Shown piece after piece: positions 18,787 through 32,382 of a stretch of DNA of 32,382 bases. The notes beneath the pieces were generated by a model, which saw nothing but the letters and a program-made list of their open reading frames with translations, ran no database searches and was not told where the DNA came from. Within the stretch, counting starts at the first letter, position 1, and each line of letters starts with the position of its first letter. This DNA comes from Myxococcota bacterium (GTDB taxonomy: Bacteria > Myxococcota > Myxococcia > Myxococcales > Myxococcaceae). Both the position numbers and the translations under genes were made by a program. The stretch lies in the NCBI GenBank assembly GCA_049322255.1, contig JBMORE010000030.1, positions 1-32,382 on the forward strand. Reading direction: 5' to 3'.

Positions 18787-19038
18787 GTGAGCGAGAAGCA
18801 GGTGGGCGACGGCTCCGAGCTGTCTGACATGGCGAGGCTGATGCGGGCGGCGAGCCCGTACTTGTCGGCGGTGTGGCGGCTGGTGGGCGGAGCGGTGTTC
18901 GGCGTCCTCGCGGGCTACTGGCTGGACAAGTGGCTGGGGACGACGCCGTGGTTGCTGGTGGCGCTGTCGACGGTGGGCATCTCGGTGGGCTTCTACGCTT
19001 TCATTCGCAGCATGCTGCTCTTGGGGAAGAAAAAGTGA
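18787..19038 (+). CDS. AtpZ/AtpI-family small membrane protein
   Basis: GYWLDKWLGTTPWL signature; first gene of the F0 cluster; start 18787 or 18829. Confidence 0.88.
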   Translation: MSEKQVGDGSELSDMARLMRAASPYLSAVWRLVGGAVFGVLAGYWLDKWLGTTPWLLVALSTVGISVGFYAFIRSMLLLGKKK

Positions 19039-19445
19039 GTGGGCGCCCCTCACCCTTGCCCTCTCCCAGGGGGAGAGGGATGCAGTGGGCGCTGGCGGGG
19101 GTGGCGGGAATTGGAGTGGCAGGAGTGGTGGCGGCGAAGCTCCTGGCGGAAGGGTCGGAGCGGCAGGCGGCGTTGTTGGGTGTGGGGCTGGCGGCGGCGA
19201 GCGGTGGACTGGCGCTGTGGCTCAAGCGGCGAGCGGTGAGAGAAAGCTTGCAGGCGGCGCTCAAGGCAGTGGGAGTGATGTTCGCGGTGCGGGTGGTGCT
19301 GGTGGCGGTAGGGGTGTGGTGGGTGGCGCGGCAGGGGTTGGGCCCGACGGCCTTCGTGGTCGGGTTTTTCGGCGTGTACTTCGTCGTGCAGTGGGTGGAG
19401 ATTGGTTTTCTCCTCGCCGAGCAGAAGCGGCGCGGGGCTTCGTGA
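19035..19445 (+). CDS. ATP synthase I-chain-like four-TM protein
   Basis: four hydrophobic helices, located between the atpZ-like gene and atpB; start GTG 19035 (overlaps the upstream stop) or ATG 19080. Confidence 0.75.
   Translation: MSGRPSPLPSPRGRGMQWALAGVAGIGVAGVVAAKLLAEGSERQAALLGVGLAAASGGLALWLKRRAVRESLQAALKAVGVMFAVRVVLVAVGVWWVARQGLGPTAFVVGFFGVYFVVQWVEIGFLLAEQKRRGAS
19042..19080 (+). repeat. 39-bp palindromic REP-like element, copy 2
   Basis: GGCGCCCCTCACCCTTG-CCCTCTCCC-AGG-GGGAGAGGG-A; 35/39 identical to 5871-5909. Confidence 0.85.
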
Positions 19446-19455
19446 GGAACGCGAG

Positions 19456-20487
19456 ATGAAGGCGGCGATGAAGACCTGGGGGGTGCTGACGGCGGCGATG
19501 CTGGCGACGGGCGCGTTCGCCTCGGGAGGTGAGGGCGAGCACGGAGAGAGCGTGCCCGATTACATCCTCCACCACGTGTCCGACGACTCGGTCTACGAAT
19601 TCGAAATTCCGGCGCCGTTTTATACCGGCCACAACCCGCACATCGACCTGGCGAAGACCTTTCACTTTCTGCAGTTCGAGCTGAAGCCGGGAGCGTGCAG
19701 CCCCACTCCGGTGCACGGTGCCGGCCTGTGGAGCGAGCTCTTCGCCGGCTGCATCGACCTGCGCCCCACCAAGCACGTGCTGATGATGTGGATAGGCGCG
19801 CTCCTGCTCCTGGTGGCGCTCCTCACCGGCACCCACCGCGACAAGACCAAGCTCGTTCCCCACGGAGTGGGAAAGAACTTCTTCGAGATTCTGGTGCTCT
19901 TCGTGCGCGACGAAATCGCCATCAAGAACATCGGCAAAGAAGAGGGCCCCCGCTACACGCCCTACCTGCTCACCGCGTTCTTCTTCATCCTCTTCATGAA
20001 CCTGCTCGGGCTGGTGCCCTTCATGGCCACCGCCACCGGTAACTTGGCCATCACTGCCGGCTTGGCCACCTGCACCTTCGTCATCACCCAGTTGGCGGGC
20101 ATCCGTGCCGCGGGGCTGGGCGGATACTTGAAGCACCTCACCGGCGGAGTGCACTGGGCGCTTTGGCCAATCATGGTTCCGGTGGAGGTGCTCGGTCTGT
20201 TCACCAAACCCTTCGCCCTCACCGTGCGTCTGTTCGCCAACATGCTCGCCGGCCACGTGGTGCTCTTCTTCATCCTCGCTCTCATCTTCCTCCTCCACGG
20301 GGGGATGGCGGTGGTGAGCGTGCCGATGGCGGTAGGCATCTACATGCTCGAGCTCTTCGTGGCCTTCGTGCAGGCCTACGTCTTCACCATGTTGTCAGCG
20401 CTCTTCATCGGCATGAGCGTGGCGATGGGCCACCACCACGACGAAGAGCATCACACGCCCGAGGGCGCGCACGCCCATGGCAGCTGA
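19456..20487 (+). CDS. atpB: F0F1 ATP synthase subunit a
   Basis: KPFALTVRLFANMLAGH, ELFVAFVQAYVFTMLS. Confidence 0.97.
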   Translation: MKAAMKTWGVLTAAMLATGAFASGGEGEHGESVPDYILHHVSDDSVYEFEIPAPFYTGHNPHIDLAKTFHFLQFELKPGACSPTPVHGAGLWSELFAGCIDLRPTKHVLMMWIGALLLLVALLTGTHRDKTKLVPHGVGKNFFEILVLFVRDEIAIKNIGKEEGPRYTPYLLTAFFFILFMNLLGLVPFMATATGNLAITAGLATCTFVITQLAGIRAAGLGGYLKHLTGGVHWALWPIMVPVEVLGLFTKPFALTVRLFANMLAGHVVLFFILALIFLLHGGMAVVSVPMAVGIYMLELFVAFVQAYVFTMLSALFIGMSVAMGHHHDEEHHTPEGAHAHGS

Positions 20488-20499
20488 ACCAAGGACCCG

Positions 20500-20567
20500 C
20501 TGGAGGAAGGCCTCCAGGCGGAGGTAGCACCCGATGGGCCGAACCGACCCCCCCGAAAAGTGGGTCG
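20500..20567 (+). other. two intercistronic hairpins upstream of atpE
   Basis: CTGGAGG-AAGG-CCTCCAG (20500-20517) and CGACCC...GGGTCG (20545-20567). Confidence 0.45.
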
Positions 20568-20595
20568 AGCAAGAAGGAAGGAAGCTGTGGAGACT

Positions 20596-20826
20596 ATGAA
20601 TCCTTTGACCCTCGCGTATTTCGCCGCCGGCATCGGTGCTGGCATCGCCATCATCGGCGCCGGCTCGGGCATCGGTAAGCTCGCCGCCGCCGCCATGGAA
20701 GGCACCGCCCGCCAGCCCTCGGCCGGTGGCGACATTCGCACCACGATGATCATCGCCGCGGCGCTCATCGAAGGCGCCACGCTGTTCGCCCTGGTGGTGT
20801 GCATCCTCCTCGCGGTGAAGGCCTAA
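20596..20826 (+). CDS. atpE: F0F1 ATP synthase subunit c
   Basis: GxGxGxG helix, ARQP loop, ALIEG carrying the ion-binding Glu; GGAG RBS. Confidence 0.97.
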   Translation: MNPLTLAYFAAGIGAGIAIIGAGSGIGKLAAAAMEGTARQPSAGGDIRTTMIIAAALIEGATLFALVVCILLAVKA

Positions 20827-20849
20827 GCGCCGCGTTCGTCACGAAAACC

Positions 20850-20879
20850 GGTGTCCGGCGTCAGATGGCGCCGGGCACC
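20850..20879 (+). terminator. strong hairpin after atpE (mRNA stabiliser or partial terminator)
   Basis: 13-bp stem with 2 G-U pairs, GGTGTCCGGCGTC-AGAT-GGCGCCGGGCACC, followed by TTCT. Confidence 0.6.
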
Positions 20880-20896
20880 TTCTCGAAGGTGAATTC

Positions 20897-21436
20897 ATGA
20901 GCCCCCTCCTTCTCGCCGCCGCCAGCTTCCTCGACATCCGCCCCGGCCTCATCTTCTGGACCATCGTCACCTTCATCGTGGTGGCGCTCGTCTTGCGGGC
21001 CAAGGCGTGGAAGCCCATCCTCGACCTGGTGGAGGAGCGCGAGAAACAGATTTCCAACGCCGTCGAGTCGGCGAAGAAAGAGCGCGCCGAGGCCGAGCGG
21101 CTGCTCGCCGAGCAGAAGACCGCCATCGCCGAAGCGCGCCGCGAGGCCGCCGAGCTGATGCGCAAGAACCAGGCGGAGATGGAGAAGTTCCGCGACGAGC
21201 TGATGGCCAAGAGCCGCAAAGAGGCCGAAACCCTCAAGCAGGAGGCGACCCGCGCCATCGCCGACGAGCGGGCCAAGGCGGTGGCGGAGGTGAAGGCCGA
21301 GGCGGTCAACCTGGCCATTCAAATCGCCGAGAAGCTGCTTGGTGAGAAGCTCGACGACACCAAGCACCGCGCGATGGCCGAGCAGTTCATCGCCCAGCTG
21401 CCGGCCAAGGACGCCGGCGTGCGCCCCGTGGCGTGA
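20897..21436 (+). CDS. atpF: F0F1 ATP synthase subunit b
   Basis: PGLIFWTIVTF TM helix, AWKPIL, long A/E/K coiled coil. Confidence 0.95.
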   Translation: MSPLLLAAASFLDIRPGLIFWTIVTFIVVALVLRAKAWKPILDLVEEREKQISNAVESAKKERAEAERLLAEQKTAIAEARREAAELMRKNQAEMEKFRDELMAKSRKEAETLKQEATRAIADERAKAVAEVKAEAVNLAIQIAEKLLGEKLDDTKHRAMAEQFIAQLPAKDAGVRPVA

Positions 21437-21457
21437 GCCGTTAGGCGTTTACGCTCC

Positions 21458-22567
21458 GTGGGACTTTCTATCGGCATCGTCGGGCTGCCCAACGTGGGCA
21501 AGTCCACCCTCTTCAACGCCCTCTCCTCGGCCGGCGCCCAGGCGGCCAACTACCCTTTCTGCACCATCGAACCGAACATCGGCGTGGTGCCGGTGCCCGA
21601 TGAGCGGCTCGACCGCATCTCCGCGCTGGTGAAGCCGGAGAAGACCATCCCCACCTCGCTGGAGTTCGTGGACATCGCCGGCCTGGTGCGTGGCGCCTCC
21701 AAGGGCGAGGGCCTGGGCAATCAATTTCTCGCCAACATCCGTCAGGTCGACGCGGTGCTGTACGTCTTGCGCTGCTTCGTCGACGAGAACGTCACCCACG
21801 TGGAGGGCAGCGTCGACCCCGCGCGGGACAAAGACGTGGTGGACACCGAGCTGTGCCTCAAAGACTTGGAGACGGTGGAGAAGCGTAAAGAGAAGACGCA
21901 GCGCTCCGCCAAGGCGCCGGGCAAAGAAGGCGAGGTGGCCAAGCTGGAGCTGGCGGTGCTGGAGAAGGTGAAGGCAGGGCTCGACGCCGCCATCCCAGTG
22001 CGGGCACAGAAGCTCTCCGAAGAGGAACGGGCGCTGCTCGCCGACCTCTTCTTACTCACCGCCAAGCCGGTGTTGTACGTGGCGAACATCTCCGAGTCGC
22101 AGGTGGGGAAAGAGAAGGACGACCCGCTGGTGGCGAAGGTGAAAGCCATCGCCGACGCTGAAGGGGCCGAGATGGTGGCGCTCGCCGCCGCGCTGGAGGC
22201 GGAGATTCAGCAACTGCCCCCCGAGGAGCGGCCGAGCTTTTTGGAGAGCGTGGGCCTGTCCGAGCCTGGGTTGCACAAGGTGGTGCGCGCCGGCTACCGG
22301 CTCTTGGGGTTACAGACCTACTTCACCGTCGGCCCCAAGGAGTGCCGCGCCTGGACCATCAAGAAAGGCTGGCGGGCGCCGCAGGCGGCGGGAGTCATTC
22401 ACTCCGACTTCGAGCGCGGCTTCATCAAGGCGGAAGTCATCCGCTGGCAGGACCTGGTGGAGCTCGGCTCGGAAAGCGCGGTGCGCGAAAAGGGCCTTTT
22501 ACGCATCGAGGGCAAGGAGTACGTCGTTCAAGACGGCGACTGCATGCACTTTCGCTTCAACGTCTAA
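21458..22567 (+). CDS. ychF: redox-regulated ATPase YchF
   Basis: GIVGLPNVGKSTLFN, ANYPFCTIEPN, DIAGLV, GLGNQFL, GKEYVVQDGD, FRFNV. Confidence 0.98.
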   Translation: MGLSIGIVGLPNVGKSTLFNALSSAGAQAANYPFCTIEPNIGVVPVPDERLDRISALVKPEKTIPTSLEFVDIAGLVRGASKGEGLGNQFLANIRQVDAVLYVLRCFVDENVTHVEGSVDPARDKDVVDTELCLKDLETVEKRKEKTQRSAKAPGKEGEVAKLELAVLEKVKAGLDAAIPVRAQKLSEEERALLADLFLLTAKPVLYVANISESQVGKEKDDPLVAKVKAIADAEGAEMVALAAALEAEIQQLPPEERPSFLESVGLSEPGLHKVVRAGYRLLGLQTYFTVGPKECRAWTIKKGWRAPQAAGVIHSDFERGFIKAEVIRWQDLVELGSESAVREKGLLRIEGKEYVVQDGDCMHFRFNV

Positions 22568-22586
22568 CCACTCGCCGACGTCGACC

Positions 22587-25500
22587 TCATTGCCTGCGGC
22601 GGCTCCTTCGCAACGCCGGCAGCAGCCAGAGACAGCCGAGCAAGATGCTCAGGTCGGCGCCCGAAGAACAGCCACAACGGCGAAGCTCGCCACTGGAATC
22701 GGACGGGTTCTCCGCAGAACCGGCTCCTGCGTCTTCGCCGCCACTTCCGGCATCGGCCCCAGGTGCATTGCCGCTTACAAATTCAAAAGCTCCCCTGTCC
22801 CACACTCCGTCTGCGCCACGCACATTGCCAAAGGCATCGACGTTGTATGGAGCCTGCAAAGTGATGCCGGCACTGGTTGGTCCTACGAGAGTCACATCGC
22901 CATCAGAGAGATTGGTGAATGGATTGCCAGCTTCAGCCTGCCGGTTGGTTTCCGGTGGAGTGTTCGTTGTACTGAAATAGGCGTTATAGTCGTGCGTCGG
23001 GGTGGAACGCATGTCCGCCGTCATGTTGTAAAGCAAGTTGTTGTAGACAGTCGACTGCACCGCCGTCCCAATCCAGCCGCCATAACCATAAGGACTTTGG
23101 ACGTTGACGAAGGTGTTGTTGTAGACGACGCCCGTCATCTCCTGAGTCCCGTATCCGTTGATGACTCCGGTGATGCAGCCATCCCCGAACCGCATGTCTT
23201 TAAAAACGTTGCCATATATATAATAAGGCCCGGCATCGTCGTTGAGGACCACGATACACGCCGTTCCGGAAGTGCGGCCCTCGAACCAGTTGTATCGAAC
23301 GGTGAGGGCGGTGAGGTTGGAGAAGTTGTTGTTGATGTCCTCGCCATGGTTCGCTGCGGAGCTGAATCCATCAAGAACGACGTTGTACTCGACCAGCCAG
23401 TTGCTCATCGACTGCCCTGGCGAGGTTGCCCAAATGAAATTGGACCAGCCGCTGCCGTAGTTGTGACTGATGGTCACGCCGTTCACCGATCTGGTGCTGT
23501 TGTCTGTCTGTACAAAAAACTTCTCGACATCTCCCGCTGGAGCTGTCGCCGCAACATGGGAGACTTTAATGCCAGAAATATCCATATTGGTGTTGTAGAT
23601 GGAAACGGGATACCGCATGGTGGTAAATGCGAATCCGTATTGAGATGCCGATTTCGACATCACCGGCCCGACGGAGCCATCGAAAACCCAGTTGGACGTG
23701 TTGAATGTGACTCCTGATGTCCAAGTCGCCTGGGTGTTATCGACAGAATAACTGTTGTTCCATCCGACATCGGAGCCATGGTCTGCGATGGTTGCTCCTT
23801 TGATGGTGATTGCGATTGACCCCGACATGGCAGTGTCGAAGGTCCTTCCGGCATAAGAACCGCCCGCGACATAATAGGTATCCCCTCGAACGAGCGCCGT
23901 AGGCAGTGAAGTGTAAGCGTTCGTCCAGCTCGTACCGTCATTGGCTCCTGCTGCCCCTGCACGGACGTGGTGGTTGGCTGCTTCCGCGCTCGCTGCGCCG
24001 AGAGAAAGCAACGCTAGAAGGAAATAGCAGTTTATCTGCTTGGGGCGGCGTCTCCAAGCTGCCGGCAGCAGCAAGAGACAGCTGAGTAAGACACTCAGAT
24101 CGGCTCCCGAAGAACAACCACAGCCGCGAAGCTCGTCACCGGACTCAGCCTCGCCTTCCTCAGAACCGGTTCCTGCGTCACCGCCGCCGCCATCCCCCCC
24201 GGGTTCGACGCCGCCTCCTGCGTCGGTCTCAGGCGCACCACCGCCATCGGAGCCCCCGCCCAATCCTCCGTCGCACGAATTCGATGCGGGCAGGCAGGCG
24301 CCAGCTCCATCGCACTGGTCTCCGGTCGTACACGCCAGCCCGTCATCGCAAGTGTCCCTTTCGGGCTTGGGTGGGTAGCTGCACGACCCGGCGATGCACC
24401 GTGCACCCGCTGCGGCGCGACATGCCGGCGGTTGCGTACACTCGCCGTCGATGGCGCAGGCGGGAACGTATTCGTAGGCGCCCATGTCCCAGAGGCCGTC
24501 GGCGCCACGGGGATTGCCCACAAGGTCGGTGTTGTATGGCGCTCCCAAAGTGCTGTTTCCGGCCGCGGTGGGGCCAGCAAGGCGAAAGTCGGCGCCGGCG
24601 TAGTCCACGAAGGGGTTGGCCGAAGACGTCTGACCGTTCGGCTCGGAAAGGGTCACATCGGCACGGTTGTAGTCGTGGGTCGTGTTCGCGAACCCAACCC
24701 GTGTGTTCTTAAAGAACAGGTTGTTTTGTGCCACCCAGCCTGACGTATTCCCGATGCCGATGTATCCGTCTGTTCCGGCGAAGGTGTTGTTGTAGATGAA
24801 CACATTCCGCGTCTGCTGCTCGGCGGTCCAATTGGCAATCACACCGTTGGCGTTCCCCCAGGAGCTGGTCCAGCGGAAGATGTTTCCGTAGATGTAGATG
24901 CCATCGCCTCCGGACATGATGAGGCATCCGGTAGACCGGAAGTTGTTGACGTAGTTGTGTCGGAAGGTCACGTTCGTCAGCGAGCTTGGCGACGTGTGAT
25001 TGGCTGACCAAATCTCTCCATGCTGAGTGGCCGTCGTCCCAATCGTGCAGTCCCTGAAGAATGTGTGCTCGATGGTGATGTTCGACCATCTAGACCTCGT
25101 TCCCAGCGCTACCCGTCCCGCACGGTTGAAGCGGCAGTGGCTGAACGTGATGTTGCTCGCATCATAGAGCCCATAGACAGCGTCCTGTCCGACGGCGACC
25201 GCGTCTCCCGCGGGAAATGCCAGGGTGTCATTGTAGTCGTAGGAAAAGTCGATGTGCCGCAAGGTAATGTTGGAGATGGTCTGATTGAAACGAACCAGTT
25301 TCGCGAAGGCGGCATTGGTCGTCACCCGCACGCGGATTCCAAAGCCCCCATTCCAGCTGCCACTGCCGCCGCCAGTTTGTCCGTCGATTTCGTAGTAGCT
25401 GGTGGAAAAAGAGATGGGGTTGAGCTCGGCGGGCCCGTCGGCGTAGGAGACGTTCCAGCCGGTCTCGGTGCCGTGATCGGCAGCGGTCGCTTTCTTGACG

Positions 25501-25775
25501 TAGATGAACGTCGTCCCGGCTTGGGCATCGTCGAAGGTGTAACCGCCATAGGTGCCGGCAGAGAGGTAGTAGGTGTCGCCGCGGACCAAGGTGGCAGGCA
25601 GCGAGGTATAGGCATTCGTCCAATCTGAACCGGAGCCGCTGCCATTGGCGCCGGCGCGAACGTAGCGAGTCGCTGCCCCTGCACTCCCCGGCAAGCCGAC
25701 GAGCATGCCCAGTAAGGCCAGCCCAACCGCTCGGAATCTCCACCCTTTTTCTACAAGGAAGCGGAAGGCGCACAT
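22587..25775 (-). CDS. 1062-aa two-module surface polyprotein: [signal - beta-helix/choice-of-anchor-Q-like - Cys-rich - linker - MYXO-CTERM] fused to [signal - beta-helix - linker - MYXO-CTERM]
   Basis: two homologous YVRAG..WTNAYTSLP..LVRGDTYY ... YGNxF..YNNTF ... RGADGxWDxGA[YF]E modules; two xCGCSSGADLS + hydrophobic + RRR tails; start ATG 25775 inferred. Confidence 0.85.
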   Translation of the reverse strand: MCAFRFLVEKGWRFRAVGLALLGMLVGLPGSAGAATRYVRAGANGSGSGSDWTNAYTSLPATLVRGDTYYLSAGTYGGYTFDDAQAGTTFIYVKKATAADHGTETGWNVSYADGPAELNPISFSTSYYEIDGQTGGGSGSWNGGFGIRVRVTTNAAFAKLVRFNQTISNITLRHIDFSYDYNDTLAFPAGDAVAVGQDAVYGLYDASNITFSHCRFNRAGRVALGTRSRWSNITIEHTFFRDCTIGTTATQHGEIWSANHTSPSSLTNVTFRHNYVNNFRSTGCLIMSGGDGIYIYGNIFRWTSSWGNANGVIANWTAEQQTRNVFIYNNTFAGTDGYIGIGNTSGWVAQNNLFFKNTRVGFANTTHDYNRADVTLSEPNGQTSSANPFVDYAGADFRLAGPTAAGNSTLGAPYNTDLVGNPRGADGLWDMGAYEYVPACAIDGECTQPPACRAAAGARCIAGSCSYPPKPERDTCDDGLACTTGDQCDGAGACLPASNSCDGGLGGGSDGGGAPETDAGGGVEPGGDGGGGDAGTGSEEGEAESGDELRGCGCSSGADLSVLLSCLLLLPAAWRRRPKQINCYFLLALLSLGAASAEAANHHVRAGAAGANDGTSWTNAYTSLPTALVRGDTYYVAGGSYAGRTFDTAMSGSIAITIKGATIADHGSDVGWNNSYSVDNTQATWTSGVTFNTSNWVFDGSVGPVMSKSASQYGFAFTTMRYPVSIYNTNMDISGIKVSHVAATAPAGDVEKFFVQTDNSTRSVNGVTISHNYGSGWSNFIWATSPGQSMSNWLVEYNVVLDGFSSAANHGEDINNNFSNLTALTVRYNWFEGRTSGTACIVVLNDDAGPYYIYGNVFKDMRFGDGCITGVINGYGTQEMTGVVYNNTFVNVQSPYGYGGWIGTAVQSTVYNNLLYNMTADMRSTPTHDYNAYFSTTNTPPETNRQAEAGNPFTNLSDGDVTLVGPTSAGITLQAPYNVDAFGNVRGADGVWDRGAFEFVSGNAPGADAGSGGEDAGAGSAENPSDSSGELRRCGCSSGADLSILLGCLWLLPALRRSRRRQ
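22615..22697 (-). repeat. MYXO-CTERM-coding direct repeat, copy A
   Basis: 71/83 identical by hand alignment to 24061-24143. Confidence 0.85.
24061..24143 (-). repeat. MYXO-CTERM-coding direct repeat, copy B (internal)
   Basis: 71/83 identical to 22615-22697. Confidence 0.85.
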
Positions 25776-25814
25776 GCTGGGCTCCAAGGCTATGATGCTC
25801 GAGGGCTTCCACAC

Positions 25815-26804
25815 GTGAAAACCTTGCACCCGTCTTTGGCCCTGCTGTCGGGTCTTTTGGCGAGTGGCGTCTTCGCATCGAACCCGCAGGACGAATGCGA
25901 CCTCGATGCGCAAGTCGCCGCGACCATCGACAGACTTTCGAAGGCTTCGGTGGCGGAGCGCTTTCGCTGGCGCGTAGGTCGACGCGATGACCTGCTTTCC
26001 ATCACGTTGGCCGACCTGGGCGAGCGGCCCATCAAGCAACGCGAGGTCGAGGCGCCTCCGTCCTGCCACGCAGCGGCAGAGCTCGCCGCGACGCTCATTG
26101 TCGCCTGGATGAGCGAGCTGCCCACCGCGGAGCTTCCCTCGGCGCCGCGGGCGGTCAAACCGCCGGCTGCCCCGGTGCGGCGACACCCACCCAGCAATCA
26201 GGCTCCTCCGCCGGCTCCTCCGGCACCTCCCCAACCGGAGCCGCCTGCCCCCCACGTCGAAGTGGTTTCCGTGGAGCCAACACCACCGCCTTCCCCGTCG
26301 CGTGCTGGGGGATGGGACACCTCCCTGAGCCTGGACTTCAAGGGACAATGGGCGGGCACGCTCGCTCCCGCCGCCGCGCTTAGCGTCGACGTCGGCGAGC
26401 GCTGGGGCGGGTTTCTCGAGCTGGAGGGCATCTGGCCGCGCCGCGCTGCCTTCTTCGAGGGCGCGGTGAATTGGCAGCGCTCCTCGGTGGGGCTCGGCGC
26501 GCGCCGGCGGTTCGTTTGGGGTCGACTGTTCCTCGAGCCTGGGGTCAGTGCGGCCATGGTGCTGATGGTCGTTTGGGGCCAGGGCTTCGCGGTCGACCGT
26601 CGTCAGCTCGGCATCGACGTCGCCGGCTGCGCGAGGTTGCATGCGGGCGTGGAGTGGGAACCCGCTGTCGCTCTCTTCGTGGGAAGCCGCGGCTGTCTGT
26701 GGCGGTCCAACACGGCGCAAGTGGTGGGGGAGAGCCAATGGTTCCAATTTCCTCGCGGAGAGCTCTCGGCCGTGATGGGTGTGAGTTGGAGGTTTTTGCG
26801 GTGA
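25815..26804 (+). CDS. exported protein with Pro-rich linker and probable C-terminal outer-membrane beta-barrel
   Basis: signal ending GVFA|S; PPPAPPAPPQPEPPAP; alternating amphipathic strands ending GVSWRFLR. Confidence 0.75.
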   Translation: MKTLHPSLALLSGLLASGVFASNPQDECDLDAQVAATIDRLSKASVAERFRWRVGRRDDLLSITLADLGERPIKQREVEAPPSCHAAAELAATLIVAWMSELPTAELPSAPRAVKPPAAPVRRHPPSNQAPPPAPPAPPQPEPPAPHVEVVSVEPTPPPSPSRAGGWDTSLSLDFKGQWAGTLAPAAALSVDVGERWGGFLELEGIWPRRAAFFEGAVNWQRSSVGLGARRRFVWGRLFLEPGVSAAMVLMVVWGQGFAVDRRQLGIDVAGCARLHAGVEWEPAVALFVGSRGCLWRSNTAQVVGESQWFQFPRGELSAVMGVSWRFLR

Positions 26805-27412
26805 AAGGTCCTGGGCGCCCAAGGCCCACAACCGATGTGCTCCAGGCCGCCACCACCCAGCCTTGGCAGGTCCGTCAAGTGACGGCCGCCCACCCGACGC
26901 TGGAGGCGGTGTACCGGGAGTACGCCTTGGTGGTGGCCCGCTGGGCCGCGCGGTTGGGAGGTGGGCACTTGGACCCGGCCGACGTCACCCAAGACGTCTT
27001 CCTCAAAGTGGAGCGGGAGCTGCCCGCGTTTCGCGGCGACGCCAAGCTCTCCACCTGGCTGTACCAAATCACCCTGAACGTGGTTCGCACCCGCAGGCGA
27101 ACGGAGGCGTTTCGACGGCTGTTTCGCGCCCCCGCCGACGAAGGGTTGACGGTCTCCGACAGCCGGCCGCTGCCGTCGGATGAGCTCAGCCGTCGAGAAA
27201 CCTCCCGCCGCTTGCACCAGGTGCTCAATCGACTCAACGAGCGCTATCGCCAGGTGTTGGTGCTGTTCGAAATCGAGGGACGCAGCGGACAGGAAGTGGC
27301 CGATCTGATGCGCGCGCCCGTCGACAATGTCTGGGTTTGGCTGACCCGCGCTCGAGCGGCGTTCGCCAAACACCTCGAGCGTCTGGAAGCCGAGGAGGAA
27401 AAGGGGAAATGA
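26801..27412 (+). CDS. ECF sigma-70 family RNA polymerase sigma factor
   Basis: DVTQDVFL, FRGDAKLSTWLYQI, RQVLVLFEIEGRSGQEVA, LTRAR; GGAGG RBS and GTGA overlap. Confidence 0.93.
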   Translation: MKGPGRPRPTTDVLQAATTQPWQVRQVTAAHPTLEAVYREYALVVARWAARLGGGHLDPADVTQDVFLKVERELPAFRGDAKLSTWLYQITLNVVRTRRRTEAFRRLFRAPADEGLTVSDSRPLPSDELSRRETSRRLHQVLNRLNERYRQVLVLFEIEGRSGQEVADLMRAPVDNVWVWLTRARAAFAKHLERLEAEEEKGK

Positions 27413-28077
27413 GTCGCCACCGCTGGAAAGACGAGACTACCGATGGCCGCGAGTTGCGAGCCGCCCGCCTGTTGGCCGACGGAGACCCCGGCGTGCTGAT
27501 TTCGGCGCTCGGGCCGTTGGGCCAGCGCCCACCTCGCCGCGCACCGGGGAGGCTGCGGACGGGAGTCGTCGCGGTCGCGGTGCTGAGCTTCAGCGCCACC
27601 TTGGCTTCTGCCGCGAGCTTTGCCGCCTGGCGTCTATGGCCGGGAAAGGAGCCGGCTCCGGTCACCCGCCCGGTCGCATCGCCACCTCCCCAGGGCAACG
27701 AGGGGCTGGCGCAGGAGGTCGAGACGTTGCGACGCGCGCTCGAGTCGCTTTCTCGAAACGACCCAGAACAGTCGCTGCAAATTCTCGCCAGCTACGAAGG
27801 CCGCAGCGTTCAGCTCGAAGTCGACCGCCGAGTGGTTCAAGCGCGCGCACTCATGATGCTGTCGCGCTACGACGGTGCCCTGGCTGTTTTCAACGCGCTC
27901 TCGGAGGACCGGCTGACCCCGGGGCTCATCTTGCTGTGGGCAGATGCCCTGCAACGCAAGAACCAATGTGTGCAGGCGCAAACGATGCTCGACCGGCTCG
28001 AAGGTCAGCCGCTGTCGGGCGAAGAGCGAGATGCGCAGAAACGGTTACGGGCGCGATGCGCTGCCGGGCGACCTTGA
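27409..28077 (+). CDS. single-TM protein with periplasmic TPR-like domain, putative anti-sigma factor
   Basis: ATGA coupling to the sigma gene; short cytoplasmic N-terminus, TM (GVVAVAVLSFSATLASAA), helical repeat C-terminus. Confidence 0.7.
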   Translation: MSRHRWKDETTDGRELRAARLLADGDPGVLISALGPLGQRPPRRAPGRLRTGVVAVAVLSFSATLASAASFAAWRLWPGKEPAPVTRPVASPPPQGNEGLAQEVETLRRALESLSRNDPEQSLQILASYEGRSVQLEVDRRVVQARALMMLSRYDGALAVFNALSEDRLTPGLILLWADALQRKNQCVQAQTMLDRLEGQPLSGEERDAQKRLRARCAAGRP

Positions 28078-29486
28078 TGAGCCGCACGGTTGCCTGTGTC
28101 GCGTGGGCTTGTTTGGCCTGCAACCCGTATGTCGTGGGGGAGCGCGCTTCGCCACCGTCGACTTGTCTGGGGCAGCTTCAGCCGTTGGGTGGCTCGGCGA
28201 GCGGCGGCGGCGTCACCAACCGCAGCGTCACCACCGCCTGTGCGCGGGTGGCACTCGACCCTCGAGGCACCCCCTACGTGGCTTGGGGTGACCGCTCGTC
28301 GGGAACCAACGAGGTCTACTTGCGTCGCTGGGACGGCCAAGGCTGGGTGGGCGTCGGAGGCTCTGACGCAGACGGTGGGTTGTCCCTCGGCTCCGGCTCT
28401 GGTCTCGACAACGGCTACCGCAGCTGCATGGGAGACGTCGCGTTCGACGACCAGGGTCGAGCCTATGCGACGTGGGCCAACTACGACGGCACCCAGCAGA
28501 GCATCTACGTGCGCCGGTGGAATGGCTCGAGCTGGGAGGAGTTGGGTGCTTCCGCCCGCGGCACCGGAGTGGCGACGACGGCCTTCAACTGGTGGCCGCG
28601 TCTCTCGGTGCGCCCCGCGGGCGCCGCGGTGGTGTGGTCGCGCGCCTCCGAAGTGTATCTCTCCTGGTGGGACGGCAGCGCCTGGCGGCAACTGGCCGGT
28701 TCGGCCACCTTCCCCGGCGTCTCTGGTGCTGGCTCCGATGCGAAGCTGCCGGTGGTGGTGAGTGGCGCGAACGACGAGCTCTTCGTCGCATGGGAAGAGA
28801 TGCGACCAGGTGGTGCCACCGCGGTCTACTTGCGCCGCTGGAACGGCTCGGTGTGGGACGAGCTGAACGGTTCGGCCACTGGCCCAGGGCTGTCGTCCTC
28901 GACGGGGTCGGCAGCGTTCGTTTCGATTGCTCACACCGACAACGGTCCTGTCGTGTCGTGGGAACAGACCGAGACGGACGGTGGCGTCGATGTGCTCCTT
29001 CGCCGCTGGGATGGCGCCGGTTGGGCCTCTGCCACCGGCGTCACCCTGCGTGAAGCAGGATTGAGCCGTGCGCCGCGCCGTCCCAAGCTGGCAGTGGGGG
29101 CGGAGCAAGAGCTGTACGTCGCGTGGGAGCAAGACGAGCCCGCAGGCACCTCGGTGCAGCTCGCGCGTTGGACCGGGTCAGAGTGGGAGCATTGCGGTGG
29201 AAGCGAAACCTTGGTGGCCACGGAGGTACGCTCCACCTGGCCTGTTTTGGCTGCCACCGGTGACGGCCACCTCGCGCTGTCCTGGTTCGAGGAGACAGCC
29301 CCCGGCGTCTTACAAGTCTTTCTCGCCAAAGGAAGTGTAGCTCCTACTGGAGCGGCCCCAAGCGCTGGGAGTTACCAGGCCGGGGCAGGCTGCGCCGTCG
29401 TTCCTGGCTCCACCCTGCCGCTGATGGCAGCGTTGTTCGTGAGCTCGAATCTGAAAAAGGGGAATCGCAAGAGGAGAGGCACATGA
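28077..29486 (+). CDS. lipoprotein with Trp-rich propeller-like repeats and MYXO-CTERM-like tail
   Basis: MSRTVACVAWACLAC lipobox; about six VAW...YLRRW[DN]GxxW repeats; GAGCAVVPG-hydrophobic-KKGNRKRR end. Confidence 0.85.
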   Translation: MSRTVACVAWACLACNPYVVGERASPPSTCLGQLQPLGGSASGGGVTNRSVTTACARVALDPRGTPYVAWGDRSSGTNEVYLRRWDGQGWVGVGGSDADGGLSLGSGSGLDNGYRSCMGDVAFDDQGRAYATWANYDGTQQSIYVRRWNGSSWEELGASARGTGVATTAFNWWPRLSVRPAGAAVVWSRASEVYLSWWDGSAWRQLAGSATFPGVSGAGSDAKLPVVVSGANDELFVAWEEMRPGGATAVYLRRWNGSVWDELNGSATGPGLSSSTGSAAFVSIAHTDNGPVVSWEQTETDGGVDVLLRRWDGAGWASATGVTLREAGLSRAPRRPKLAVGAEQELYVAWEQDEPAGTSVQLARWTGSEWEHCGGSETLVATEVRSTWPVLAATGDGHLALSWFEETAPGVLQVFLAKGSVAPTGAAPSAGSYQAGAGCAVVPGSTLPLMAALFVSSNLKKGNRKRRGT

Positions 29487-32382
29487 AGCGCCAAACTGCT
29501 CTGTTCGTTTTCTCGCTGACCACCGGCGTGAGCCTTCTTTTTGCCGCGCGTGCCGAGGCCGCCAGCCACTATGTCCGCGCGGATGCTGGCGGAAACGGTT
29601 CCGGCTCCGACTGGACGAACGCTTACACGGCGTTGCCCACGACGCTCATCCGCGGAGACATCTACTATGTCGCCGATGGGGTCTACGGTGGCTATTCGTT
29701 CGATGACGCCGAGCTGGCCCTGCAACCCATCGTCGTCTTGAAGGCAACCGCGGCCGACCACGGCACCGAGGTCGGGTGGGATGGCAGCTACGGAGATGGG
29801 CAAGCAAGGTTCGGCCGGCTGGTGTTTTCCAGCGATTACTACGTCTTTGATGGAAACCGTTCGAACGGGTACGGGTTCTTGCTTCAGAGCGCCGGAGGAA
29901 CCGACGTCGTCAACCTGGGAAACTATGGCGCCGGTACGAGCCACAACACCATCAAGAGCACTTCCATCGACTGCCAGGGCGCGGCAGGGCAAAGAGCCAT
30001 CTTCGCCGCGGACAGTGACAACCTGGTGTTGTCCAACGTCGAGGCATGGAATTGCGACAACGACCTATTGGGAGCCAGGAATCTCACCAACCTCGTGATT
30101 GAGGGTTCCCACTTTCACACGAGGAACAACGCGGGCGTGGGCACGCATGGAGACGCAATCGAAATCACATCTTCAAGCAACGTGACCATCCGGAACACCA
30201 TCTTCGATTGGGCAGGGCAGATTCTATTCTTCGGCGGAGACACTTCAGGCGCGAACGGACGATTCGACGTCTACGGAAACGTATTCAGCGGAGGTGGGAA
30301 TTCCGGGCAGGGGATTGTACGCAACAGCTCCGGAACGGGCGGACCCATCAACGTGTACAACAACACCTTCTACGGGCTCGACACGGAGAACATCGAGTCG
30401 GGAATGACATACGGCGGCATCGTCAACAACCTGTTTGTCGCCGGTGCTGACAAGACGGCAGGAGCCACCACCGGAAGGGATTACAATTACTACACCGACG
30501 ACTACACGGATTACGGTGCCGATCCCCACCATCAACGTGGTCCGAGCATTCTGAGCAACCCGGCGCAGGGTGACTATGCGCTTTCCGTGGCCACCAATGC
30601 TGGAGCAGATTTGTTGAGCTTCCAGCCCTTGTACGGAAGCCTCGTGGTCGACAGGAATGGGCGACAGCGGGGCGCCGACGGAGTGTGGGATCGGGGCGCG
30701 TTCGAGTTTTCAGCCAACGCTCCACCTCCTCCGAATGACGGTGGGGTCGCTCCCGTCGATGCCGGCCCGGTGGTGGATGCGGGCTCGAATGACGATGCCG
30801 GCAGTGTTTCAGATGGCGGCCACTCCGAGAACATTCAGGAGGACGGGGGCGAGGTGGGCCCTGGGGGGGTCGACCAGGAGCCGGGCGTCGGGTGCGGGTG
30901 CCAGAACGTTTCTGGGTTGCTCACGCTCTCGTCTCTGCTTGGCTTGGTGGTCCTCATGCGCCTTTCTCGACGGCCGGGTCATCGGGCGATGCCGAGCCAA
31001 CGAGGAAGCGTGACACTTCGAAACGTCCTGCGGCTATTCGCTCTGCTCGTTCTTGTCGCCAGCGAAGCGAACGCGGCAAACCATTACGTCCGGGCCGGTG
31101 CCGCGGGTGCCGATAACGGCTCCGATTGGACGAACGCCTACGCGTCACTCCCTCCGACGCTGGTTCGAGGGGATACGTACTACGTCGCCGATGGCGCGTA
31201 TGGGAGCTACACGTTCAATGACCAGGCCGCATCGACATCGCTCATCACGGTGAAGAAGGCGACGAGCGCTGACCACGGGACGAATACCGGGTGGGACGAG
31301 ACATACGGCGACGGCCAGGCGATCTTCACCGGGTGGGTCTTCGACACATCGTATTGGCTGGTCGATGGGCAGACAGGAGGGGGCCCTGGGAGCTGGGAAG
31401 CGGATCACGGGTTCCGAGTCAAGACGACTGGCGGCGGGGCCAAGACCGTTCGGGTCAACGCCGACAACGTCGAAATCCGGCATGCCGACCTGGAGAACTC
31501 CGGAATGGACGTCGCTGGGTCCGGCGACACCGTCTACACCCTCGGAGCGATGAACCTCCGGCTCTCGCACTGCTGGCTCCACAACACCAATCGGACCAAC
31601 GTCCTCGTCAGCGGACCGATGGATGGCTTCGTCCTGGAATACAGCCTGGTTTCCGAGCGGCACAACACAGACGGCCTCCACGGCGAGCACATGTCCATCA
31701 ACAACACCGGAACGGGACGAAACAACGTCATCCGCCACAACATTTTTCGGAACGCGGGCGGTGCAAACACCGGCGTCATCGTCATCAAGGACTCCGTACA
31801 ATCCGGCTGGAAGATATACGGCAACGTCTTTTACAACACGCCGGGCTTCCCTGCGGTTTGCTCGGACGGCATCATCACTGACACCACCGGCGACAGCTCG
31901 ACCGACATAAAAATATACAACAACACATTTTTGCCTCATCCCGGCATCAACGGGAATGCGACCGTGGTTTCGTGGGACGTGCCGACAGGCAATGCGTTCA
32001 AAAACAATGTTGTCTTCGGCGGTTCCACTGTCATAGGGGTGGCTGCCCGAGACTTTAACTTATGGGATTCCTCGGCGGGAGCCTCCCAGGAGGCGAATGG
32101 GCAGTACTGGTCGGCTGGACAGAACGCTCTGTTCAAGAATCCGTCCGCATATGACTACACGTTGCAAGTCGCCACGGATGCCGCGGACAGCACCATTGGA
32201 TCCGAGTACAGCGTCGACATGCTCGGGGTCGTCCGAGGGAGCTTCGGAGTGTGGGACCGGGGCGCGTTCGAGTTTTCGGCCGCCGCTCCGCCTCCTCCGA
32301 ATGACGGTGGCGCCGCCCCCATGGATGCCGGCCCGGCTGTGGATGCGGGCTCGACCGATGATGCTGGGTCAAGCGCCGACGC
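29483..32382 (+). CDS. second multi-module surface polyprotein (partial, at least 966 aa, runs off the window; absent from the ORF track)
   Basis: hand translation from ATG 29483 (RBS GAGGAGAGG): MKRQ...AEA|ASHYVRAD...WDRGAFEF-linker-GCGCQNV-TM-RR, then in frame VTLRNVLRLFALLVLVASEANA|ANHYVRAG...WDRGAFEF; no stop up to 32382. Confidence 0.88.
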   Translation, partial: MKRQTALFVFSLTTGVSLLFAARAEAASHYVRADAGGNGSGSDWTNAYTALPTTLIRGDIYYVADGVYGGYSFDDAELALQPIVVLKATAADHGTEVGWDGSYGDGQARFGRLVFSSDYYVFDGNRSNGYGFLLQSAGGTDVVNLGNYGAGTSHNTIKSTSIDCQGAAGQRAIFAADSDNLVLSNVEAWNCDNDLLGARNLTNLVIEGSHFHTRNNAGVGTHGDAIEITSSSNVTIRNTIFDWAGQILFFGGDTSGANGRFDVYGNVFSGGGNSGQGIVRNSSGTGGPINVYNNTFYGLDTENIESGMTYGGIVNNLFVAGADKTAGATTGRDYNYYTDDYTDYGADPHHQRGPSILSNPAQGDYALSVATNAGADLLSFQPLYGSLVVDRNGRQRGADGVWDRGAFEFSANAPPPPNDGGVAPVDAGPVVDAGSNDDAGSVSDGGHSENIQEDGGEVGPGGVDQEPGVGCGCQNVSGLLTLSSLLGLVVLMRLSRRPGHRAMPSQRGSVTLRNVLRLFALLVLVASEANAANHYVRAGAAGADNGSDWTNAYASLPPTLVRGDTYYVADGAYGSYTFNDQAASTSLITVKKATSADHGTNTGWDETYGDGQAIFTGWVFDTSYWLVDGQTGGGPGSWEADHGFRVKTTGGGAKTVRVNADNVEIRHADLENSGMDVAGSGDTVYTLGAMNLRLSHCWLHNTNRTNVLVSGPMDGFVLEYSLVSERHNTDGLHGEHMSINNTGTGRNNVIRHNIFRNAGGANTGVIVIKDSVQSGWKIYGNVFYNTPGFPAVCSDGIITDTTGDSSTDIKIYNNTFLPHPGINGNATVVSWDVPTGNAFKNNVVFGGSTVIGVAARDFNLWDSSAGASQEANGQYWSAGQNALFKNPSAYDYTLQVATDAADSTIGSEYSVDMLGVVRGSFGVWDRGAFEFSAAAPPPPNDGGAAPMDAGPAVDAGSTDDAGSSAD
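30680..30788 (+). repeat. module-tail direct repeat, copy A
   Basis: 97/109 identical by hand alignment to 32246-32354. Confidence 0.85.
32246..32354 (+). repeat. module-tail direct repeat, copy B
   Basis: 97/109 identical to 30680-30788. Confidence 0.85.

Follow-up and report, generated by a model that had tools for sequence, protein, structure and literature searches.

How can a single reading frame carry a membrane-anchoring tag in its middle and then start again with a second export signal and a second exported protein? The stretch of DNA analysed here (the window, 32,382 nucleotides) is the entire contig C30 of a 4.85-Mb genome assembly, of 99.6% completeness, from an uncultured myxobacterium, and it raises this question twice, in ORF A on the minus strand and ORF B on the plus strand. 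Our analysis bears out the architecture that a sequence-only reading had assigned to both frames: a signal peptide, a beta-helix module, a linker, a tag composed of GCGC, a hydrophobic helix and RR, a second signal peptide and a second module, with no stop codon to separate them. We favor, at a probability of roughly 0.64, the interpretation that the product of each frame is a precursor that would be split by signal peptidase I and a myxosortase into two envelope proteins.

Layout and assembly of the two reading frames

ORF A extends from 25775 to 22587 on the minus strand and encodes 1062 aa from ATG 25775, a start inferred from an upstream GGAG, to a TGA at 22587–22589. The N-terminal signal peptide (aa 1–34, ending A-G-A; 25674–25775) is followed by module A1, a right-handed beta-helix (24456–25673) that is 67% identical to a stand-alone secreted Nitrospirota protein (L026). 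By its sequence, the next segment consists of a Cys-rich stretch and then an acidic Gly/Pro linker (aa 441–550; 24126–24455); modules, linker and tag are laid out as first described, and the Cys-rich stretch that module A1 carries ahead of its linker is an addition to that description. The internal MYXO-CTERM-like tag (GCGC, hydrophobic helix, RRR; 24042–24125) shares its Arg cluster with the second signal peptide, which ends A-E-A (23979–24041). Module A2, also a beta-helix (22761–23978), is 76% identical to a stand-alone secreted Elusimicrobiota protein (L049), and the frame closes with an acidic linker, a terminal MYXO-CTERM-like tag and the stop (22587–22760). Hydropathy analysis places hydrophobic stretches at the N-terminal signal, at an internal pair (residues 556–574 and 581–597) and at the terminal tag, and nowhere else. 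A single-sequence model of junction A, of low confidence (pLDDT 58.5), consists of two helices with a three-residue break, and about 480 residues lie downstream of the internal tag.

ORF B starts at 29483 on the plus strand and is still open after 966 codons at the contig end, position 32382. Its signal peptide (aa 1–26, ending A-E-A; 29483–29560) precedes module B1, a beta-helix (29561–30721) whose best relative is about 35–37% identical, with none close among the matches listed. An acidic Gly/Pro linker (30722–30889) leads to the internal MYXO-CTERM-like tag (GCGC, hydrophobic helix, RLSRR; 30890–30973), to a basic loop and second signal peptide ending A-N-A (30974–31075), and to module B2, another beta-helix (31076–32287). 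The start of a second acidic linker (32288–32382) is all that precedes the contig end. Here the hydrophobic stretches are the N-terminal signal and an internal pair (476–494 and 510–532; hydropathy), and at least 469 residues lie downstream of the internal tag. The modules are homologous, with about 37–42% identity, and the distances that had been given from GCGC to the cleavage site are correct: 49 aa in A (G551–A599 at position −1; 46 aa from the Cys) and 62 aa in B (G470–A531; 59 aa from the Cys). The further proposal of two independently anchored products fits ORF A, where both anchors are visible, whereas the second tag of ORF B lies beyond the contig end.

The intactness of the frames was evaluated with Logan contigs of the public run X1, which are contigs rather than raw reads and come from a different assembler. 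X1 carries 97% of the words of the window and may be its source sample; next to none of the window is present in runs X2 and X3. A single 8.6-kb X1 contig at 45x spans 22400–27635 with 0 differences and 0 gaps relative to the window, and junction A is thereby bridged. Overlapping pieces cover junction B completely, one of them running from 30945, within the tag helix, through the signal and into module 2 at 31955. Six base differences are listed between 27637 and 31955, and the three in ORF B amount to N155D and two silent changes. The continuity that had been claimed for both junctions is therefore upheld by the X1 contigs, which contain no frameshift at either, in one contig for A and in overlapping pieces for B.

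X1 contains three copies of junction B. The two extra copies, at depths of 21 and 26, carry 12 and 20 differences; one is gapless and the other has a 3-base deletion, no stop is found among the differences listed (8 of 12 and 19 of 20), and both stay in frame through the signal peptide. Over 30919–31086 their depths sum to approximately the single-copy depth. The genome assembly yielded neither of these copies and no continuation of ORF B. The copies might represent two alleles located after the tag of module B2, beyond the contig end, or belong to a related strain. Because the link runs via short shared pieces, the pairing of B1 with B2 rests on the path of the genome assembly. One junction B copy is apparently interrupted 3 codons past the cleavage site. 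At 31077–31086, two loose ends in X1 resemble imperfect inverted repeats around a 9–10 base overlap, a pattern suggestive of an insertion element just past the cleavage site in one copy; neither the interrupted copy nor the putative element was found in the genome assembly. The prospect that misassembly joined genes that are separate in the cell draws on the repeat in which the contig ends, on the several copies of junction B with their short connecting pieces, and on the possibility that both assemblies share a sample, but it is hardly credible given that a different assembler reproduces junction A letter for letter at 45x and that the window's own copy of junction B has no listed indel.

The DNA of the tails records how the frames may have been joined. 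The internal and terminal tags of ORF A are 81% identical in DNA, and the two tails align gap-free, with the terminal CAA TGA standing opposite an internal CAG ATA, a correspondence consistent with a stop having been lost where start and stop codons once overlapped. In ORF B, the end of module 1 and the first part of its linker are 87% identical in DNA to 32245–32367. In both frames the tails are thus nearly alike, unlike the divergent modules. Stop loss could also have left a long frame that is incidental, with module 2 produced mainly from an internal translation start as in an operon. The second signal region of ORF B has an in-frame ATG (30989) and, with GAGGA 3 bases upstream of it, an in-frame GTG (31010); both are possible restart sites that would give module B2 a normal signal peptide. 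Start and stop codons of adjacent genes in this locus do overlap, and in ORF A codon 568 is TTG and codon 581 is the ATA. Residues 549–602 of ORF A contain no in-frame ATG or GTG, though, and in ORF B the GAGGA is too near the GTG and is altered in one X1 copy. Translation of module 1 would, moreover, still read through and yield a fused precursor. We consider internal initiation as the main source of module 2 to be rather improbable, and retain the interpretation of a precursor that is cut.

Cargo modules and the central cassette

Modeled from a 91-row alignment with a pLDDT of 92.9, module B2 adopts a right-handed beta-helix. By TM-score its best fold match is the pectate lyase Pel9A (PDB 1ru4; TM 0.60, 14% identity, Foldseek E 3.8e-6), and PL6 lyases and GH136 enzymes are also matched; the right-handed parallel beta-helix is shared with these PL6, PL9 and GH136 enzymes at an identity of only 12–14%. 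Sequence matches of the modules to PDB entries are weak (E 0.0014 at best). The modules are probably carbohydrate-binding or lyase-like.

The best 80 matches were kept in each of the genome and metagenome scans for the module, so near relatives may be missing. Among the matches listed, the family is thinly scattered over many phyla: some members are single secreted proteins, others form arrays of separate genes, and others again are one-chain repeats with no internal signal (e.g., P0002). One such array, on an Elusimicrobiota contig of 8267 bases (L042), is a tandem of at least 5 separate beta-helix genes, most with their own signal peptide and some split across frames. Among the matches listed, a tag was absent from all 110 distinct homologous ORFs (99 loci outside the genome). 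A module profile matched 12 of 401 genomes of the phylum. Scoring was limited to 4 candidates in each genome, and among these, all full-length modules from other genomes were untagged. A search of 40 relatives for orthologues of the fused ORFs returned only matches to the tails. The condition under which the sequence-only reading would have been abandoned, that homologues are always separate genes, does describe this module family (0 of 110 ORFs fused), although it does not describe the class of joints considered below. Since the fusion is absent from the 110 homologous ORFs, selection on the two joints across species is unsupported.

The four modules of the window are not each other's closest kin: in a FastTree phylogeny, A1 pairs with the Nitrospirota protein and A2 with the Elusimicrobiota protein on starred branches. 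Local duplication of one module was ruled out, as the starred branches require at least 5 separate origins for the six modules of the genome; the other two are an unfused tagged module on C149 and an untagged module on C150. The modules have a GC content of 54–60% as against 66% for the genome, and they were probably acquired from other phyla. We infer an order of events in which the acquisition of modules was followed by a local graft of tails and then by fusion, and the two fusions are probably young and local. Beside ORF A, 18873–22567 holds ATP synthase membrane-subunit genes, named by their translations, and ychF, which ends at 22567 and is convergent with the ORF A stop at 22587. GC falls from about 66% to 55–62% across ORF A, and the drop marks a probable insertion boundary. 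Scans of the window for promoters and terminators gave results at the level of chance.

Between the two ORFs lies a cassette on the plus strand that begins with a gene for a 329-aa exported protein of no known family, the putative barrel of the sequence-only reading (25815–26804), for which Pfam and NCBIfam gave nothing significant. Its start is 39 bases from that of ORF A, and a gap of this size (25775–25815) means either that divergent promoters overlap coding sequence or that one start is misplaced. There follow an ECF-type sigma factor with sigma regions 2 and 4 (26891–27412, start codon not fixed), a membrane protein with one helix and a weak match to TPR, likely the anti-sigma factor (27409–28077, in ATGA overlap with the sigma gene), and a predicted lipoprotein with BNR-type repeats and a degenerate tag-like tail (28077–29486), whose stop overlaps the ORF B start in another ATGA. 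By this arrangement, the lipoprotein gene and ORF B are putative tag-to-signal neighbors that are still unfused. A paralogue of the lipoprotein on C18 has a strong terminal tag.

Relatives of the 329-aa gene occur in 13 of 120 family genomes (this tally and those for the two families described below include one unpublished genome, G219). The ECF gene adjoins the relative in 9 fetched stretches from 8 genomes, 8–18 kb each, with an anti-sigma-like gene matched in 4, and a tag, joint or beta-helix module was found near the cassette in none of the 9. The cassette is accordingly a recurring unit with variable neighbors, and we rejected a conserved ECF-controlled polyprotein system. With ORF B in its apparent operon and ORF A divergent from it, regulation of the two ORFs by the cassette is plausible from position alone, with no conserved link. 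The description of the locus as a new system does not survive this comparison, nor the fact that an internal MYXO-CTERM is in print for MXAN_5598.

The tag-signal joint and its distribution

The MYXO-CTERM model TIGR03901 (cut-off 20 bits) assigns 6.9 bits to the internal tag of ORF A and gives no hit for the terminal tag of ORF A or the internal tag of ORF B, and none of the window's tags is among its 39 matches in a scan of the genome at E ≤ 1. This model, which had been suggested as a check on both ORFs, thus leaves the window tags below its cut-off. When 33 terminal tags from elsewhere in the genome than the window served as the training set, the resulting profile gave 21.8 bits for the internal tag of A, 22.1 for that of B and 11.9 for the terminal tag of A when short pieces were scored, and 14.4 bits for B and under 13 for A with whole ORFs. 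Both internal tags contain GCGC with the invariant Cys, a helix after the motif whose hydropathy peaks at 2.19 and 2.25 over 15 residues, and an Arg-rich cluster after the helix (WRRRP in A and RLSRR in B); the motif of the ORF A terminal tag, the only one in C-terminal position, is RCGC. The window tags are divergent but have the three parts of MYXO-CTERM.

The internal signals have a basic n-region, a hydrophobic h-region and A-x-A before the mature chain, as judged by hydropathy and homology. They end exactly where the mature chain of stand-alone homologues begins, at the A-N-H-Y motif, and the internal signal of ORF A resembles the N-terminal signal of L049, the 76% identical relative of A2. 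The genome also encodes candidates for the processing and export machinery, including a myxosortase core (NF040914, 135.5 bits; cut-off 100), the type II secretin GspD (TIGR02517, 634.3 bits, over cut-off) and the signal peptidase I LepB (over cut-off), so that myxosortase and type II secretion occur together; the myxosortase and the 39 TIGR03901 matches are the grounds on which the genome is treated as myxobacterial. As described in the passages of the sources consulted, the MYXO-CTERM/MrtX pathway, with TraA as its prototype, shares with the window the Cys motif, helix, Arg cluster, N-terminal signal, myxosortase and type II secretin (PMC11980579; bioRxiv 10.1101/2023.06.07.544157). In contrast to that pathway, two of the window tags are internal and 0 of 3 reach the TIGR03901 cut-off.

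Reading on in frame from the 39 TIGR03901 matches of the genome revealed two more joints, in a 2044-aa CARDB/Ig protein on C54 and in a matrixin on C170, and one of these two genes exceeds the TIGR03901 cut-off in the genome scan. A third long read-on, on C13, lacks the Cys and was dropped. The C54 protein (G000:C54:37409–43540, minus; L119:1410–7541) has two homologous halves, an internal MYXO-CTERM and signal, and a terminal tag; chains related to it contain three or four units (P0075, P0082). In the matrixin-like metalloprotease of C170 (G000:C170:20989–22086, minus; L120:1490–2587), an internal tag and a signal peptide lead into a small second domain. The C54 and C170 families have matches in 80 and 89 of 121 family genomes, respectively. 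The series Cys, helix, basic residues, hydrophobic stretch and AxA is present in one frame in 30/30 and 30/30 of their best loci, a choice of loci that includes the window's genome and favors fused forms, while some genomes match one half only.

Across the joints of both families, 39–61 aa separate the Cys from the −1 Ala (47 of 52 rows scored). A joint profile was built from 52 of the 60 joints, with 8 near-duplicate or mis-anchored rows left out, together with the two window joints, of which junction B aligned poorly; in this alignment the Gly, the Cys, the Arg and the Ala near the cut are each at least 90% conserved. Among 1.84 billion representatives, the profile matched 240 clusters at E ≤ 0.001. 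Of the best 150 of these 240, 136 have an internal joint with both halves and the Cys, 87 of which are unrelated by BLAST to the two seed families; 9 of the best 150 have two or three joints per protein, and the window's module is absent from them. The suggested search for internal tags followed by signal peptides was therefore productive, with 240 clusters and two more genes in this genome, and by these counts the predicted joint is common in myxobacteria. One 2500-aa hit of the profile (P0154) has, instead of MYXO-CTERM, seven PEP-CTERM matches, at least one of which is followed by a signal-like stretch; the tag-signal joint may exist with exosortase tags too.

Material for new joints is also at hand. 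Within 45 codons of the terminal tags of the genome, a crude filter finds a signal-like stretch in 10 of 40 cases, about 4 of which look spurious, and such neighbors would provide the raw material for chance fusion. At G000:C55:17395–18897, the terminal tag of one gene and the signal peptide of the exported gene after it share DNA in different frames, which makes the pair a putative unfused counterpart, one frameshift short of fusion. The fusions of the window could be recent accidents in decaying, horizontally acquired DNA, with products that are tolerated or non-functional. The lack of fusion in the 110 homologous ORFs listed, the low GC of the modules, the junction copy in X1 that looks interrupted by an insertion and the nearby signal-like stretches are all consistent with such a history. 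It is nevertheless very improbable in our estimation: two different junctions and two variant copies are all in frame, all four modules are full length, and the same joint has been kept across many genera in other families.

Separation of one precursor at an internal signal peptide is familiar from the Bradyrhizobium japonicum FbcH precursor and from viral signal-peptidase polyproteins; these are not known to have a tail-anchor tag before the internal signal or to be surface-sorted by a sortase-like enzyme. An internal MYXO-CTERM has been described in MXAN_5598 of Myxococcus xanthus, probably a gene fusion, with processing of the N-terminal part proposed, and such cases were called rare (Guo, Haft and Wall, mBio 2025, PMC11980579). 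ORF A and ORF B resemble MXAN_5598 in that the frame continues past an internal tag into another complete envelope protein. In MXAN_5598 that second half is an outer-membrane barrel with an OmpA domain, whereas in the window it is a beta-helix module; unlike MXAN_5598 as described there, the halves of the window ORFs are homologous, a predicted cleavable signal follows the tag, and the second half of ORF A has its own tag. In the passages of PMC11980579 consulted, no second signal peptide comes up, and its main text does not use the word 'polyprotein'. In Haloferax volcanii, a strain-specific fusion puts the PGF tag of an ArtA substrate mid-protein, where it is still cut (reviewed in PMC6098224, on Abdul Halim 2017). 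As presented in that review, this case differs in its archaeal enzyme, in being a Tat substrate and in its downstream NifU domain, with no second export signal described. The literature searched, from which subscription papers were mostly out of reach, yielded nothing relevant on bacterial polyproteins that are divided at a second signal peptide downstream of a tail tag. Within those sources, the internal tag is already in print and a second signal after the tag was not found.

Proposed processing and its implications

In the model we favor, the joint would enter the membrane as a hairpin of two helices and be cut on both sides, so that one translation would give two envelope proteins. Sec would export module 1 until the tag helix brings transfer to a halt; the Arg cluster would remain cytoplasmic and serve as the n-region of the second signal, with which export restarts, and signal peptidase I would free module 2. 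The tag Cys would be lipidated, myxosortase would cut after it, and the type II system would carry module 1 to the surface, module A2 being anchored likewise through its own terminal tag. As for origin, divergent modules, probably from other phyla, would have been given near-identical tails, and neighboring genes would have merged via stop loss. The hairpin anatomy and the two-product reading were both part of the sequence-only reading, and they gain support, at the level of predicted proteins, from the enzymes in the genome and from a joint that is kept in two other families and many unrelated proteins.

Alternatively, signal peptidase I could be the only enzyme that cuts, in which case module 2 would be freed, the internal tag would be neither lipidated nor cut, and the hairpin would keep module 1 attached to the inner membrane. 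The divergence of the window tags, all scoring below the TIGR03901 cut-off, points in this direction, and a second helix beside the tag could conceivably block the entry of myxosortase. We regard this outcome as unlikely, considering that conservation of the Cys reaches at least 90% across the aligned joints and that both internal tags of the window keep GCGC, that the ORF A internal tag is so similar in DNA to the terminal one (81%), and that an internal archaeosortase tag is reported to be cut (PMC6098224).

If the joint is cut twice, as in the precursor model, then tail tags are not limited to protein ends, and many annotated 'giant proteins' of myxobacteria would be several proteins made in a fixed ratio. 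The long downstream half makes cleavage by myxosortase easy to follow, which would help to learn where the cut falls and whether the Cys is lipidated. ORF A offers a clean test case: its product is about 110 kDa, its halves are similar, and its internal tag is 81% identical in DNA to its terminal one. The special value of the locus lies in its two apparently young fusions of homologous cargo, adjacent to one another. More tentatively, and at somewhat less than even odds, the tag-signal hairpin may be a general self-splitting linker that allows myxobacteria to condense an operon of as many as four surface proteins into one ORF, in the manner of viral signal-peptidase polyproteins. The locus would then capture this linker arising afresh twice, with foreign beta-helix modules plugged into repeated tails that vary within the population.
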